Part shown: positions 26,169 through 34,921 of the stretch, in pieces
Position numbering within the stretch: the first letter of the stretch is position 1
Layout of the letters: every line of letters starts with the position of its first letter
NCBI GenBank assembly: GCA_964542675.1
Contig: CAZIUH010000002.1
Location: 98-64,097, forward strand
Source of the DNA: an uncultured Candidatus Saccharibacteria bacterium
GTDB lineage: Bacteria; Patescibacteriota; Minisyncoccia; Phycocordibacterales; PALSA-1337
Length of the DNA: 64,000 nt
Direction: 5' to 3'
Program-made: the position numbers and the translations under genes
The notes under the pieces: model-generated
Told to the model about the DNA's origin: nothing
Seen by the model: only the letters and a program-made list of their open reading frames with translations
Database searches by the model: none

Positions 26169-26426
26169 GAATTATTGCGAGCGAAAGTAATTATTCAAAT
26201 AATAGAATAAAAGAAGCTCTGCCGAGCTCATAAATCATACTAACAGAGCCATATCTTGAAGTCAAGGAAAGTTGTCTGACCGGATATGTACACTATCGTA
26301 ACATTTATAATATGAAGAAGATGAGATATGTCGGTAACGCCCCTGATATGATTAAATTCATTAAAGGTCAAGGTATTACCAATCTAACTCGTCTTCTTTA
26401 GTCCAGAAATTCAATTATTTGACCAG

Positions 26427-27401
26427 ATGCGCTATAATACGAATATGACGATATTTAGTCGTAAAGTAGTCAGAGAAAACATGATAAAGGTATGGGACAA
26501 ACACCGCGCTGTTACCTGTATCCTCACAGTCATCGTCCTCGCCATTATATTCGGGGCTTGGTACGGTCAAAATAATATCAATATTTTAACGAAAAATGTA
26601 AACGATCTTTCTTTGCAAATCACTTCCTTAGAAAACAAATTATCATCAACAACCGTGGGACTTCAAGAAAATATCGCAAAGACGCATGATTCCCTTTCCA
26701 ACGAACTCAATCAAGAAAAGCAAAATTCCGCGGCGATAGAACAAAAACTTGGTAGTTATCAACAACAAGTTACTTCGGTCACCGGCACCATAGACACTTT
26801 GCAGAAACTTAGCAAAACTGATCCACAACTATTACAGAAATATTCCAAAGTTTTCTTTTTGAATGAATACTACTCTCCAGCCAGACTGACCGAGATACCG
26901 GGCGATTATGCGTACAGCGATACAAGAATATTGAAATTTGAGACCGATGTATGGCCACATTTGAAACAAATGATAGATGACGCTAGAAATAACGGCATCA
27001 TTATATATGTTTATTCGGCGTTCCGTTCATTCAACGAACAGAACGCCATTAAAGGCCAATACAAAATCACCTACGGCGCCGGTAGTGCCAATTCATTCTC
27101 CGCGGATCAAGGATATTCAGAACATCAGCTCGGTACGACTGTAGATCTCATCACAACCGGTCTAGGAGGTTCTCTAGACGGCTTTGACGGCACAAAGGCT
27201 TACGCATGGCTAACTGACAACGCATACCGCTACGGCTTCATCCTTTCATACCCGAAAGACAATTCATTCTATGTCTATGAACCGTGGCATTGGCGTTTCG
27301 TCGGAGTGAAACTAGCTACCGATCTTCATAATCAAAACAAAAACTTCTATGATCTAGATCAGAGGAAGATCGATGAATATCTGGTCAATTTCTTCGAATA
27401 A
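26427..27401 (+). CDS. peptidase M15 family D,D-carboxypeptidase (VanY-like) with N-terminal TM and coiled coil
   Basis: YSAFRSFNEQ and GYSEHQLGTTVDL motifs of M15B/VanY-type carboxypeptidases. Confidence 0.7.
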   Translation: MRYNTNMTIFSRKVVRENMIKVWDKHRAVTCILTVIVLAIIFGAWYGQNNINILTKNVNDLSLQITSLENKLSSTTVGLQENIAKTHDSLSNELNQEKQNSAAIEQKLGSYQQQVTSVTGTIDTLQKLSKTDPQLLQKYSKVFFLNEYYSPARLTEIPGDYAYSDTRILKFETDVWPHLKQMIDDARNNGIIIYVYSAFRSFNEQNAIKGQYKITYGAGSANSFSADQGYSEHQLGTTVDLITTGLGGSLDGFDGTKAYAWLTDNAYRYGFILSYPKDNSFYVYEPWHWRFVGVKLATDLHNQNKNFYDLDQRKIDEYLVNFFE

Positions 27402-27480
27402 TTATATTCCCCGCATAACATTCGGTCAAAACACAAAAAAACCACTGTTCAAAAATGAACCGTGGTTTTTTTGCTTGGAT

Positions 27481-27738
27481 TTATGACAAATGCTTAGAGA
27501 CAAGTTTAGTCATTTCGAACATATTGACCACATCTTTACCGCCGAATACTTTTTTAAGATTCTCGTCGGCATTGATATTACGCTTATTCTTCGGATCCTG
27601 AAGATTCTTCTCCTTGATATAGACCCAAAGTTTCTTCACGACTTCAGACCTGGGCATCGGACCGACACCGACAACGACTGCTAAGTCCGCACTGATATTA
27701 AGCGGCTTCATAAACGCAGAATTTGATTTTGTTGGCAT
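27481..27738 (-). CDS. SWIB/MDM2 domain protein
   Basis: PMPRSEVVKKLWVYIKEKNLQDPKNKRNINADENLKKVFGGKDVVNMFEMTKLVSKHL matches the SWIB consensus. Confidence 0.8.
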   Translation of the reverse strand: MPTKSNSAFMKPLNISADLAVVVGVGPMPRSEVVKKLWVYIKEKNLQDPKNKRNINADENLKKVFGGKDVVNMFEMTKLVSKHLS

Positions 27739-27811
27739 ATGTTTCTATTATGTCCTAATAAGACTTACATAATAGCACATTCAAGGAAATATTAGGAGAT
27801 GGCTAAAGACA

Positions 27812-28687
27812 TTGAAAGCTGTTGAATGCTATAATTCTCGCATAGCTTCCATGTTATCCGATCAGTTCAACAATATTATTCCCCTTCTCGATAATTATAT
27901 CGCGGATAATACAACCGCGACAGTTGTCTCTTTTATCGTCGCGGTCGGAATAATATTCCTGCTCACGTACATTATTTCGAAAGTATACAAAAATAGTGAA
28001 TCGATGAAAAATGAATTCATCACTATTATCGCCCACAAATACAATACTCCTCTGACAAAAATGAAATGGCTCCTGGAAACTCTCATATCAAATGAACAGG
28101 ATCCGTACAAAAAAGAAAATCTGAATGAAATCCACAAAGCTAATGAACAATTAGTGAAACTTACGGGCACATTGATCGAACTTACCGATTCCACCAAACG
28201 GTCAAAAGCGGCTTATTCCTTCGAAAAATTGAATGTCTGCGAACTCACGAAAAAAGTCGGAGATGAACTCAAGATTTCATTCCAAGAAAAAAATATTTCA
28301 TTCTCAATACAATGTCCGGAAAATGACATTTTCATCAAAGCGGATAGAACTAGGATTGAATTCGTAGTCCAAGTACTCATGCAAAACGCCTGCATTTACA
28401 CTCCCTCTGGCAAGAACGTGAATGTCGCGGTTTCAAAATCAGGTTCAAAGACTATTATTTCCGTCGTTGATAATGGCATCGGCATAGAACATTCCGATAT
28501 GTCTCGCATTTTCACAGAATTTTATCGCACGAAGAATGCGCAGCTTACCGACACAGAAGGTTTCGGCGTCGGTTTGTATCTCGCGCGATCTATAGTAAAG
28601 AAACATCGCGGTAAAATCGAAGTATATTCCAAAGGTTTGAACGAAGGTTCCACATTCAAAATCGTATTGCCGATAATTCGTGAATGA
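27812..28687 (+). CDS. sensor histidine kinase (HisKA + HATPase_c), membrane-anchored
   Basis: H-box IIAHKYNTPL. N/G boxes DNGIGIE...GFGVGLYLA. No response regulator gene in the window. Confidence 0.8.
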   Translation: MKAVECYNSRIASMLSDQFNNIIPLLDNYIADNTTATVVSFIVAVGIIFLLTYIISKVYKNSESMKNEFITIIAHKYNTPLTKMKWLLETLISNEQDPYKKENLNEIHKANEQLVKLTGTLIELTDSTKRSKAAYSFEKLNVCELTKKVGDELKISFQEKNISFSIQCPENDIFIKADRTRIEFVVQVLMQNACIYTPSGKNVNVAVSKSGSKTIISVVDNGIGIEHSDMSRIFTEFYRTKNAQLTDTEGFGVGLYLARSIVKKHRGKIEVYSKGLNEGSTFKIVLPIIRE

Positions 28688-28710
28688 CAGACTCGGAAAG
28701 ACACGGTATG

Positions 28711-33742: not shown

Positions 33743-33850
33743 TATTGATTTACACTAGCATTTCGAGTCGATTTTGTCAAAAAGCTCGCATATCTCTACG
33801 CGAGTTTGAAATGTAATCCTAGATGATTAATAATATTAATAATTTTCTAA

Positions 33851-33886
33851 AAAAAAGCGGAAACTCCAACTTGTGGGGTTTCCTCA
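33851..33886 (-). terminator. candidate rho-independent terminator downstream of the csaA-like gene
   Basis: On the minus strand, GGAAACCCCACAAGTTGGAGTTTCC followed by TTTTTTTT. Confidence 0.45.
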
Positions 33887-34064
33887 GAGTCCTATATTGA
33901 AGGACATAATTTCGCGGAAATCTCTCATAAGACTTCCTCGGAGTTCCCCACTGGGGAACTTAATACGTGAAATATATCGCGAACAAATTAAAGAAGTCAA
34001 GAAATAAATAATTCGCCTAAGATTGAATAAAAAAACTAACGGGGAAAAGCCTTACCTTGATCAA

Positions 34065-34541
34065 CTACACCGCCATCATCCCCGGCATAATAGTCTCATT
34101 CGGCTCCAGAAGCGAGAAACCGCCTTCCGGGGTGGAAATGGCAAAAAGCATGCCATTACTTTCATGACCACAGATGACGCGTGGGGCAAGATTGGTGACA
34201 AACATGCAGGTTTTACCGACAAGTACGGCTGGATCGGGAAAATTATGAGCAATGCCGGAAATAATTTGTCGTGACGCAGACATCATTGTTGAAGTTGCGG
34301 TCGAATTTGAAACTGGTGCTGAATCCGAAATTGATGCTGAAACTATTGTTTTGACCGAATCTGGATTCATATTTTCTGTCACCTCTGCTACATCACCCGC
34401 CTTGCTTTCAATTTCCTTCGCCTCTCCAAAATCAACCATAAGTTTCAGTAACTTATCTGTATTCGGAATCTTCTCCGCCGATATTATTTTCCCGGCGCGA
34501 ATTTCAACTTTCTTGAATTCTTCATATGAGATCATGGACAA
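34065..34541 (-). CDS. tRNA-binding domain protein (CsaA/Trbp111/EMAP-like)
   Basis: FKKVEIRAGKIISAEKIPNTDKLLKLMVDFGE...GMLFA. A Ser/Thr-rich low-complexity insertion lies in the middle. Confidence 0.65.
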   Translation of the reverse strand: MSMISYEEFKKVEIRAGKIISAEKIPNTDKLLKLMVDFGEAKEIESKAGDVAEVTENMNPDSVKTIVSASISDSAPVSNSTATSTMMSASRQIISGIAHNFPDPAVLVGKTCMFVTNLAPRVICGHESNGMLFAISTPEGGFSLLEPNETIMPGMMAV

Positions 34542-34704
34542 AAAATATTTATGAAAAATAATGCTGGACTATTGAGTAGCCCCAATAACTTTTATAAAGA
34601 TGTAATCAATTACCGCCTTGGTTGTTTTGATAATAAAATCGAGCATGCGAAATATTATAGCATATTTGTAAAATGAAAAGCCCTATTACAAATTGGTGCC
34701 AGTA

Positions 34705-34908
34705 AGAAGCCTGATGAATATGTTTTATCATGTCCGAGTGTTTTTCCAGAGTGACGAACGACTTGCATTTCAAAAAAATTAACTCCGTACATGTCCGAGA
34801 GGAGTTAATTTTTTATGAAAACGCAGGAGTGAGGAGACGACAAAGTGAGAACTATCTCTGTATACTCTGGATACGCAGGACATGATAAAACATATTCATC
34901 AGGCTTCT
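34705..34908. repeat. MITE-like element: 31-bp perfect terminal inverted repeats flanking about 140 bp that contains a bidirectional terminator hairpin
   Basis: AGAAGCCTGATGAATATGTTTTATCATGTCC (34706-34736) is the exact reverse complement of 34878-34908. Inner hairpin AAAAAAATTAACTCC...GGAGTTAATTTTTT at 34771-34817. Confidence 0.7.
34771..34817 (-). terminator. bidirectional rho-independent terminator downstream of rplB
   Basis: 10-bp stem AATTAACTCC/GGAGTTAATT flanked by A7 and T6. Confidence 0.6.
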
Positions 34909-34921
34909 ATTTTTTGAAAGA

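Follow-up and report, generated by a model that had tools for sequence, protein, structure and literature searches.

What are eight protein-coding genes doing between rplB and rpsS, the genes of ribosomal proteins L2 and S19, which stand next to each other in the canonical S10 operon? The question is raised by a 64,000-nt stretch (referred to here as the window) of contig CAZIUH010000002.1, from an uncultured Candidatus Saccharibacteria bacterium (assembly GCA_964542675.1). An earlier reading of the sequence, referred to below as the original prediction, had described an 8.7-kb block splitting rplB from rpsS; the eight genes are in place, and all of its domain calls were reproduced. We consider it likely that the block is this species' own filling of a gap in the S10 cluster that is common to most of the Paceibacteria sampled, and that it is neither a foreign island nor a single functional module. 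In the explanation that we favor, the rplB-rpsS junction would be an old boundary between two transcription units of a cluster that is read as several units, and rpsS would carry its own sigma-70-type promoter, directly followed by a GAGCTC-type hairpin and a T-run. An insert at such a boundary would not cut the downstream ribosomal genes off from their promoter, and the junction would thus be a tolerated slot. The junction between the genes of L3 and L4 would be a second, lesser slot in the lineage.

The rplB-rpsS junction is split in most relatives

For comparison, flanks of at most 10 kb were taken to either side of rplB in 80 species-level genomes, and the window proteins were mapped onto these loci. 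The genomes were those with the 80 best L2 matches, one genome per species, and all were Paceibacteria (their loci carry three-digit labels such as L001, as distinct from ribosomal proteins such as L3). L2 identity to these loci was 65 to 93%, and the nearest relatives by L2 (up to 93%) were uncultured Patescibacteria metagenome-assembled genomes of the Paceibacteria/Parcubacteria type, near "Taylorbacteria." Where both rplB and rpsS were found (n = 56), the gap between them had a median length of 957 bp, exceeding 500 bp in 39 loci and 2 kb in 17. At six other junctions of the same operon, gaps of more than 500 bp were seen in 0, 0, 0, 0, 1, and 3 loci (of 55 to 75 each). Another 18 loci continued for more than 500 bp past rplB without reaching rpsS (the flank was 10 kb in four of them), and with these open contigs counted, 57 of the 74 informative loci showed a split longer than 500 bp. 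No earlier description of the split was found in the literature that we searched, which is not proof of novelty.

The gaps held 231 open reading frames (ORFs) in about 150 unrelated groups, and singletons made up about 150 of these ORFs. Names of gap genes were read by eye from the sequences and not from hidden Markov models (PemK alone is backed by Pfam, PF02452); read in this way, the contents included a DAG-kinase-like protein (10 loci), a diaminopimelate-decarboxylase-like enzyme, a MazF/PemK-like toxin, surface proteins of 1000-1400 aa, and an IS200-like transposase. Two recurrent assemblages, also named by eye, were seen besides. The gap of L031, L033, L034, L038, L030, and L001 held pyrimidine-biosynthesis genes (OMP decarboxylase-, OPRT-, dihydroorotase-, and DHODH-like), often preceded by a 130- to 158-aa membrane protein with the look of a DAG kinase. 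In L037, L061, and L080, which are more distant, rpsS lay more than 10 kb from rplB, and the gap held a conserved housekeeping run of FtsW/RodA-like, FolD-like, PAP2, SecD/SecF, LemA, and HtpX genes.

A promoter-hairpin element marks the junction

The 90 nt upstream of rpsS were strikingly conserved across loci. Their consensus was TTGAC(T/A), a spacer of 17 nt, and TGnTAnnAT, followed 5 to 9 nt on by a hairpin and then a T-run; the hairpin had a stem of 5 to 7 bp with the consensus AAGCTC-loop-GAGCTT (the GAGCTC type). The promoter, in the form TTGAC-N17-19-TAnnAT, was seen at a constant register in 49 of the 57 loci, and the hairpin with its T-run was found in 44 of these 49 promoter-bearing loci, compared to a mean of 0.3 and a maximum of 2 in shuffled tails. 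In the window, the predicted -35 box is TTGACT (26265-26260), the predicted -10 box lies at 26242-26237 within the extended form TGtTAGTAT, and the hairpin GAGCTC-GGCA-GAGCTT (26229-26214) is followed by a T-rich run, with the ATG of rpsS at 26168. The element was present even where the gap was minimal (83 to 144 bp, in L077, L063, L045, and L078), which indicates that it belongs to the junction and not to the inserts.

We then looked at the leader as a structure. The whole 77-nt leader of rpsS in the window did not fold better than shuffled sequences (z = -1.1). Differing loop lengths put the 3' arm of the hairpin out of register in the MAFFT alignment of the leaders, and the stem core was conserved as sequence; structural covariation of the hairpin is not claimed. 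A search of Rfam with the rpsS leader gave nothing at the gathering threshold, the matches with E values of up to 5 being only chance microRNA matches. At 26160-26236 (minus strand) in the window, a GCUC motif some 20 nt ahead of the ATG offers the hairpin's 3' arm an alternative pairing partner, which may mean nothing.

The ribosomal genes of the window keep the order of the canonical S10 operon (rpsJ-rplC-rplD-rplW-rplB-rpsS-rplV-rpsC-rplP-rpmC-rpsQ), and the rpsS element is formally like the L4-controlled attenuator in the S10 leader of Escherichia coli, with a promoter followed by a hairpin and U-run. Unlike the canonical operon, the cluster is cut at rplB-rpsS in most relatives, rpsS appears to have a promoter of its own, and the element matches no Rfam leader. 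It is possible, and we advance it tentatively, that the S10 operon is permanently divided at rplB-rpsS in the Paceibacteria and that the division is marked by this conserved promoter, GAGCTC-type hairpin, and U-run. The boundary element may stop upstream read-through and give rpsS transcripts a structured 5' end, which might serve as an undescribed ribosomal-protein leader or attenuator or as a stabilizer against 5'-end-dependent decay.

The same design was found at four places only within the window, before tuf (in a weaker form), rplD, rpsS, and rpmC. The copy before rplD follows a major facilitator superfamily (MFS) transporter gene and its terminator, and the copy before rpmC follows a restriction-modification pair. 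If the operon is permanently divided in this way, the ribosomal cluster would have slots (rplB-rpsS and, secondarily, L3-L4 and L16-L29) with genes captured by them and shuffled between them, and every new break would gain the same promoter-hairpin design.

Several observations on kindred elements may be added. Directly before the rpmC (L29) ATG at 22174, a predicted promoter, the hairpin AGCTC-GGAT-GAGCT, and a T-run occupy 22172-22241 (minus strand); this element extends into the start of the methyltransferase ORF, which is divergent to it, and its -35 region holds a tandem duplication (TTCTATTGAC, twice). A matching promoter-hairpin stands in a 3.7-kb gap after L16 in L003, which alone among the 80 loci shares with the window a large insert at this position. 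A second element, with the order promoter, hairpin, and T-run and the stem AACTGCA/TGCAGTT, was found about 3.5 kb upstream of rplB in about 25 loci (L048, L051, L058, L059, L061, L063, L066, L072, L073, L076-L078, L080, and others) and should, from its position, precede tuf; its recurrence with another stem suggests that a 5'-hairpin leader design is general for the ribosomal units of the clade. Finally, rpsN (the zinc-type S14), which follows a Pif1 helicase gene, has a near-consensus promoter (TTGACTT...TGCTAGTAT) at 18314-18469 (minus strand) and a leader of about 125 nt that opens with a different 8-bp hairpin (ATTACCTC/GAGGTAAT).

Layout of the block

Eight ORFs fill the interval between rplB and rpsS on the ribosomal super-operon, whose ribosomal genes are on the minus strand (Table 1). 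Domains were called with Pfam scans of the window ORFs, 43 of which were scanned in total. The same gene order was recovered in independent assemblies (ENA ERZ27248895, ENA ERZ27248937, Logan SRR8437218, and a Joint Genome Institute [JGI] copy). Recovery in at least four independent assemblies, together with the synteny seen in relatives, rules out an assembly chimera.

Table 1. Features of the rplB-rpsS interval and other interruptions of the ribosomal cluster in the window
Feature	Coordinates	Strand	Evidence and remarks
rplB (L2)	34922-35773	-	Pfam Ribosomal_L2_N and Ribosomal_L2_C; closes the upstream unit rplD-rplW-rplB (unit predicted)
204-nt inverted-repeat element	34705-34908	not assigned	Repeat search, RNA fold
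tRNA_bind protein	34065-34541	-	Pfam tRNA_bind 6e-20, in two stretches
DEAD-box helicase	32330-33742	-	Pfam DEAD 6e-47, Helicase_C 2e-34
HlyD-type adaptor, MacA-like	30719-32254	-	Pfam HlyD_3 6e-17, HlyD_D23, Biotin_lipoyl_2
ABC ATPase	29962-30705	-	Pfam ABC_tran 6e-34
MacB_PCD and FtsX permease	28711-29961	-	Pfam MacB_PCD 1e-41, FtsX 7e-23
Histidine kinase	27812-28687	+	Pfam HisKA, HATPase_c
SWIB protein	27481-27738	-	Pfam SWIB 7e-32
VanY/M15B peptidase	26427-27401	+	Pfam VanY 3e-32
Predicted rpsS promoter and leader hairpin	26214-26265	-	Promoter and terminator scans
rpsS (S19)	25818-26168	-	Pfam Ribosomal_S19 1e-31; opens the downstream unit rpsS-rplV-rpsC-rplP (unit predicted)
ORF6N-domain protein	45941-46348		Between S7 and EF-G
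PG_binding protein, 670 aa	41488-43500		Between EF-G and EF-Tu
MFS transporter	37197-38441		Between L3 and L4
EcoRI-like endonuclease and D12 methyltransferase	22133-24086		Between L16 and L29; the only clearly low-GC stretch (0.33-0.36)
Pif1 helicase	18676-20220		Between L5 and S14
TraG/VirD4-like (type-IV-coupling-protein-like) ATPase, 952 aa	10914-13772		Between SecY and Adk

The block is resident in the lineage

Next, we asked whether the genes of the block had arrived from elsewhere, as the term "accessory block" in the original prediction implied. The pump genes (adaptor, ATPase, and permease) were found in the rplB-rpsS gap of L002, L006, L014-L016, L018-L023, and L046 and, in L017, between L3 and L4 (about 13 species-level relatives). 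The identities of the ATPase and the permease rose with L2 identity (rho = 0.83 and 0.84, respectively). Adaptor identity was saturated at about 50 to 58% outside the closest relative (rho = 0.36, not significant), so only the ATPase and the permease are informative on vertical descent. The residence of the pump in the same gap and the tracking of L2 by these identities indicate that the block is not a foreign island.

Two closer relatives beyond the species set, a JGI 92-kb contig and L086, were reached via adaptor homologues. The JGI contig (adaptor 73% identical) carries SWIB (plus strand) and VanY (minus strand) between L3 and L4 and, between rplB and rpsS, tRNA_bind, Ham1, DEAD, adaptor, ABC, NUDIX, MacB, and kinase (minus strand) genes; its tRNA_bind, DEAD, pump, and kinase genes are in the same order as those of the window. 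L086 (adaptor 79% identical) has SWIB, VanY, and two further genes at L3-L4, and its rplB-rpsS gap holds genes for a 158-aa protein, a PemK toxin (minus strand), DEAD, a phosphoribosyltransferase, adaptor, ABC, and MacB. Around more-distant adaptor homologues (53 to 59% identity), the trio is still together and follows the mraZ-murE cell-division cluster, in one case with tRNA_bind and DEAD genes nearby. Many full-length Paceibacteria homologues were found for each of the adaptor, tRNA_bind, and VanY families, with 52 to 79% identity among the matches listed.

Recent acquisition of the block, as a genomic island or mobile element landing in the S10 operon, therefore seems to us extremely improbable. 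In its favor, macB-type and translation genes have been reported in predicted genomic islands of Patescibacteria (PMC12455944), a low-GC restriction-modification pair breaks the same cluster 2 kb away, and the inverted-repeat element at the rplB edge is private to the species. Against these points stand the GC content of the block (0.38 to 0.47, the same as that of its flanks), the position of the pump, helicase, tRNA-binding protein, and kinase at the same place in relatives, the ATPase and permease identities that track L2, and the many full-length adaptor, tRNA_bind, and VanY homologues, of which the named ones are Patescibacteria. Furthermore, Pfam scans of the block showed no integrase, recombinase, or transposase family, there was no tRNA gene (the only tRNA-like gene is the transfer-messenger RNA [tmRNA] gene at 3181-3547), and no flanking direct repeat turned up, although no search aimed at the two block borders was made. 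Synteny of the block in all relatives, named in advance as an outcome that would tell against the accessory reading, was largely what we observed. All eight genes are thus residents of the lineage whose positions shift.

The block can be read as four layers. The adaptor-ATPase-MacB permease trio, shared down to relatives at 70% L2 identity, would be an old resident; the tRNA-binding protein, helicase, and antisense kinase, which closer relatives have in common with the window, would form a second layer; the SWIB-VanY pair, which is in the L3-L4 slot of the two closest relatives, would be a third; and the species-private inverted-repeat and terminator element directly after rplB would be the fourth. 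Membership of the block in an anti-phage defense system was rejected, as a PADLOC run gave generic ATPase, helicase, and HATPase domain matches and no specific defense-system protein.

A MacAB-type pump with an expanded adaptor

The original prediction had assigned the adaptor, ATPase, and permease to a YknXYZ/MacAB-like efflux system, and family scores, Protein Data Bank (PDB) matches, and fold matches all identify the trio as MacAB-type. The permease (416 aa) has one transmembrane (TM) segment, an extracytoplasmic MacB_PCD domain, and then TM2 to TM4 (the 4-TM, type VII ABC pattern), with MacB_PCD at residues 25-248 and FtsX at residues 290-409. It scored 231 bits against the NCBIfam model of MacB versus 43.5 bits against lolCE (TIGR02212, cut-off 362) and 20 to 21 bits against the LolC and LolE exception models. 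In the PDB, it matched MacB end to end (5gko, 3e-62; 5lil) and Spr0695 of Streptococcus pneumoniae (5xu1_M, 3e-41), and the match to LolC (1e-5) covered the C-terminal TM region only. A lipoprotein-release (LolCDE) role, named beforehand as the outcome that would speak against efflux, was checked for and not found; given the model scores, the structural matches, and an adaptor gene next door, a role of the ATPase and permease as LolCDE or FtsEX was rejected.

The ATPase belongs to the MacB/LolD/FtsE clade, and its Walker A motif, signature (LSGGEKQR), and Walker B motif (IIFADEP) are all intact in the translation. Its top NCBIfam match was LolD (251 bits, cut-off 308), with the nucleotide-binding domain of MacB at 233 bits, also below its cut-off. 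The gene is directly contiguous with that of the permease, and gene callers use an alternative start at about 30681.

The adaptor (511 aa) combines a TM helix at its N terminus with lipoyl, beta-barrel, and membrane-proximal domains, and its helical domain is expanded. It scored above the cut-off of TIGR01730 (145 versus 94.9 bits) and matched MacA in the PDB (4dk1, 1e-18), aligned only at residues 39-131 and 307-507. In an AF2 model (44 homologues, pLDDT 87.8), the helical domain spans residues 100-329 (230 residues) and is made of six helices, and a Foldseek search with the model ranked MacA first (9qgy_G, 5nik_D). The "very long coiled coil" first noted in this protein thus stands as an expansion, the domain being about 140 residues larger than that of MacA, but not as a plain two-helix coiled-coil hairpin.

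Pfam scans of the window ORFs of at least 100 aa, excepting S7, S12, and three at 59-64 kb, showed no OEP/TolC family; with no TolC-type exit duct among the ORFs scanned, we filed the pump with the outer-membrane-less Spr0693-0695/YknXYZ type. To our knowledge, Patescibacteria have no outer membrane. The sequence data support the assignment of the trio to the MacAB-like tripartite ABC systems that occur in bacteria lacking an outer membrane, and by homology it would most likely act like Spr0693-0695 or YknXYZ. ATP-driven motion of the extracytoplasmic domain of a MacB-type dimer would collect a substrate (candidates are antimicrobial peptides, toxins, and components of the envelope) at the outer face of the membrane and push it through a hexameric adaptor tube with no outer-membrane partner.

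YknWXYZ of Bacillus subtilis, which shields against the SDP toxin, has the same kinds of parts (the HlyD-type adaptor YknX, the ATPase YknY, and the MacB-type permease YknZ), and the extracytoplasmic domain of YknZ (5f9q) matches the window permease (3.6e-9), but a YknW-like fourth component was not found adjoining the trio. In both sequence and fold, the adaptor and the permease domain are matched best by MacA and MacB, respectively, of the MacAB-TolC system of E. coli; in contrast to the window, where ATPase and permease are separate genes, E. coli MacB is a fusion of the two, its MacA is smaller in the helical domain, and its partner TolC has no counterpart seen in the window. Spr0693-Spr0694-Spr0695 of S. 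pneumoniae (PDB 5XU0/5XU1; PMC5768738) shares with the window three genes in the order adaptor, ATPase, permease, a 4-TM permease with its extracytoplasmic domain between TM1 and TM2, and the lack of an outer-membrane partner, although the window permease is closer in sequence to proteobacterial MacB than to Spr0695. Spr0693 is a hexameric tube with a helical barrel of 56 Å, the adaptor stimulates the ATPase, the assembly rises about 154 Å above the membrane, and knockout of Spr0693-0695 lowers the MIC of LL-37 fourfold, from 32 to 8 µg/mL (PMC5768738). Compared with that barrel, the 230-aa, six-helix domain of the window adaptor should, judging from helix lengths in the model (arms of about 65 to 70 residues plus two extra helices), give a considerably longer tube.

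Kinase, SWIB, and VanY-like proteins do not form a module with the pump

The kinase is a minimal class-I histidine kinase with a single TM segment at its N terminus; it lacks a sensor domain, and its H, N, G1, F, and G2 boxes are all intact. Its gene is on the strand opposite the operon, convergent with the permease gene, and its NCBIfam matches were to the generic PhoR/WalK-type core only, all below cut-offs. Homologues that are 48 to 51% identical occupy this gap, likewise antisense, in L003, L012, L013, L014, L017, L018, and the JGI contig. It had been called an orphan, and this holds for the 64-kb window, where neither a Pfam scan of the 43 ORFs nor tblastn with five receiver domains found a receiver domain; nor was a response regulator found within 10 kb of the kinase homologues in six relatives. 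The only receiver match in the 80 loci (L059, 5413-5769) is not beside a kinase homologue.

The VanY-like protein is membrane anchored, with a TM segment, a coiled coil, and then an M15B (VanY/LdcB-type) catalytic domain in which the motifs SEHQLGTTVD and EPWHW are visible; its gene is on the strand opposite the operon, divergent from rpsS. It was well placed in the general VanY/M15B Pfam domain, as originally called, but not in a vanY or LdcB family, scoring 72 bits against LdcB (cut-off 275), 68 against NF000472 (425), and 67 against NF000473 (400). Thus, like the LdcB/VanY family (MEROPS M15B), it has the VanY domain with metal-binding and catalytic motifs intact and, unlike that family, it combines sub-cut-off scores with an N-terminal TM segment and coiled coil, a SWIB partner, and no van operon. 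A glycopeptide-resistance D,D-carboxypeptidase was rejected on the same grounds, the scores being far below cut-offs and the neighbors being SWIB and rpsS and not a van cluster. The best 120 full-length homologues listed were 57 to 76% identical, bar an exact copy, and the named ones were Patescibacteria.

The SWIB protein is a stand-alone SWIB/MDM2 domain of 85 aa, encoded convergently with the VanY-like gene. This convergent pair was found at L3-L4 in L086 (723-1999) and in the JGI contig (3300075153) and also outside the ribosomal cluster in a Taylorbacteria genome (GCA_001822495.1); more-distant VanY orthologues occur without SWIB and are located elsewhere. The position of the pair thus differs by relative: between kinase and S19 (26427-27738 in the window), at L3-L4, or outside the ribosomal cluster; in L089 it spans 7001-8265.

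The original prediction had suggested, as a hypothesis only, that pump, kinase, and VanY-like peptidase form one envelope-stress or antimicrobial-peptide-resistance module. In such a module, the sensor-less kinase would read pump activity, as in BceRS-BceAB, and the peptidase would remodel peptidoglycan. The three genes are co-located within 6 kb, a kinase with a single TM segment and no sensor domain suits such a scheme, and Gram-positive MacAB-like pumps confer peptide resistance (PMC5768738). Nevertheless, kinase and pump do not covary, the kinase occurring without the pump in L003, L012, and L013 and the pump without the kinase in L002, L020, L046, L086, and all distant contexts, and VanY moves with SWIB and not with the pump, to L3-L4 or out of the ribosomal cluster. 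Together with the absence of a response regulator from the window and from the 10 kb around the kinase homologues of six relatives, this makes the module unlikely. The BceRS-BceAB type was rejected specifically, since the 416-aa permease has the 4-TM MacB pattern and not the 10-TM pattern of BceB and no receiver domain was found in the window or beside kinase homologues.

The rplB-proximal genes, the edge element, and co-expression

The tRNA_bind protein, at first described as CsaA-like, proved to be closer to Trbp111 and the C-terminal domain of MetRS. It is a stand-alone OB-fold that scored 88 bits against TIGR00399 (MetG C-terminal) versus 39 bits against CsaA, and in the PDB it matched Trbp111 (1pyb, 2e-14) ahead of CsaA (3.5e-7); a CsaA export chaperone was rejected (TIGR02222, 38.9 bits, cut-off 119.65). 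Like Trbp111 of Aquifex aeolicus and the MetRS domain, it is a stand-alone tRNA_bind OB fold, and unlike Trbp111 it has a low-complexity, Ser/Thr-rich loop of about 50 aa (residues ~41-90) inserted after a conserved DFGE motif. The Ser/Thr-rich insertion noted originally thus exists, but the loop that holds it is hypervariable family-wide, with homologues of 115 to 170 aa and loop lengths from 0 to about 60 aa among Paceibacteria tRNA_bind homologues.

The helicase has a CshA/RhlE-like core (residues ~130-470; NCBIfam CshA 395 bits, cut-off 646). A promoter scan placed a promoter-like site upstream of it at 34000-33971, with a leader of about 230 nt. Orthologues are in the same gap in L001, L002, L086, and the JGI 92-kb contig. 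Its N-terminal extension of about 105 aa (33428-33742) is Gly/Ser/Arg-rich, of low complexity and RGG-like in look, and orthologues in relatives range from 442 to 485 aa, so the total length is variable.

The 204-nt element begins 13 nt past the rplB stop codon. It is bounded by perfect 31-bp inverted repeats (34705-34735 and 34878-34908) and contains a perfect 14-bp hairpin flanked by an A-run and a T-run (34773-34814), with the look of a bidirectional terminator; the RNA fold is -90.1 kcal/mol (z = -11.6). It probably terminates the rplB unit. Of the loci, only L081 and L082, contigs of the same species, carried the element; the 87 others, the remainder of the window, and a scan of JGI metagenomes yielded no further copy, and it was rejected as a multicopy miniature inverted-repeat transposable element.

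These features bear on the possibility that the genes are embedded for co-expression and not merely tolerated, the tRNA-binding protein and the helicase acting in translation or ribosome assembly and riding, with the pump, on strong growth-coupled ribosomal transcription. Consistent with it, five genes of the block run in the direction of the operon, as do 72 of the relatives' inserted ORFs of at least 100 aa (30 are on the other strand); a DEAD-box helicase gene lies within 10 kb upstream of rplB in six more-distant loci (L048, L059, L063, L066, L072, and L078); and tRNA_bind and DEAD genes are near the pump even outside the ribosomal cluster. However, a strong terminator-like hairpin directly follows rplB, a promoter-like site precedes the helicase gene itself, the co-directional run is interrupted by three genes (two antisense, with SWIB between them), and the gap contents of relatives are functionally unrelated to translation. 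We regard co-expression as the reason for the arrangement as very unlikely.

The tolerated-slot explanation has observations to contend with. The rpsS promoter and hairpin are predictions, and the hairpin core (GCTC/GAGC) is conserved in sequence with few compensatory changes in a rule-based tally, so that a DNA operator or a plain terminator of the upstream unit is possible in place of a leader RNA. Since the sample comprises the 80 best L2 matches of Paceibacteria, one per species, "class-wide" is an extrapolation. The kinase gene is convergent with and adjacent to the permease gene in the window and in the JGI relative, kinase and pump share the gap in L014 and L018, and a link of the kinase to the pump is possible; the response-regulator negative covers the window and the loci, and a distal regulator in the genome is likewise possible. 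Lastly, the 72-to-30 strand bias also fits selection for read-through co-expression.

Each gene of the block is an ordinary member of a known family, and the reading as a "resistance island" should be dropped. What is noteworthy is the organization: across a large clade of ultra-small bacteria, the gene cluster that is otherwise the most conserved in the domain is regularly interrupted at one specific junction, and the break carries a conserved promoter-hairpin while housekeeping and envelope genes move in and out. If transcripts confirm this, a streamlined genome reorganizes an essential operon without loss of expression, and the rpsS unit has a candidate new regulatory leader. A block of 16 ribosomal proteins is in use as a marker for these bacteria, and large variable inserts, which could stretch the block by more than 10 kb, would affect the synteny-based use of ribosomal blocks in binning and phylogenomics. 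The pump, widely conserved and uncharacterized, with an unusually long adaptor, offers a lead into the cell envelope of these organisms.

Other interruptions of the cluster

Pfam scans showed that the ribosomal super-operon is broken at six further junctions in the window (Table 1), so the rplB-rpsS block is not the sole interruption. Elsewhere in the window, the tmRNA gene, with the tag peptide AKSSVSPYFGAKDFAFAFV, adjoins smpB (3629-4105), and an RNase J-like beta-CASP protein is encoded at 6770-8215.

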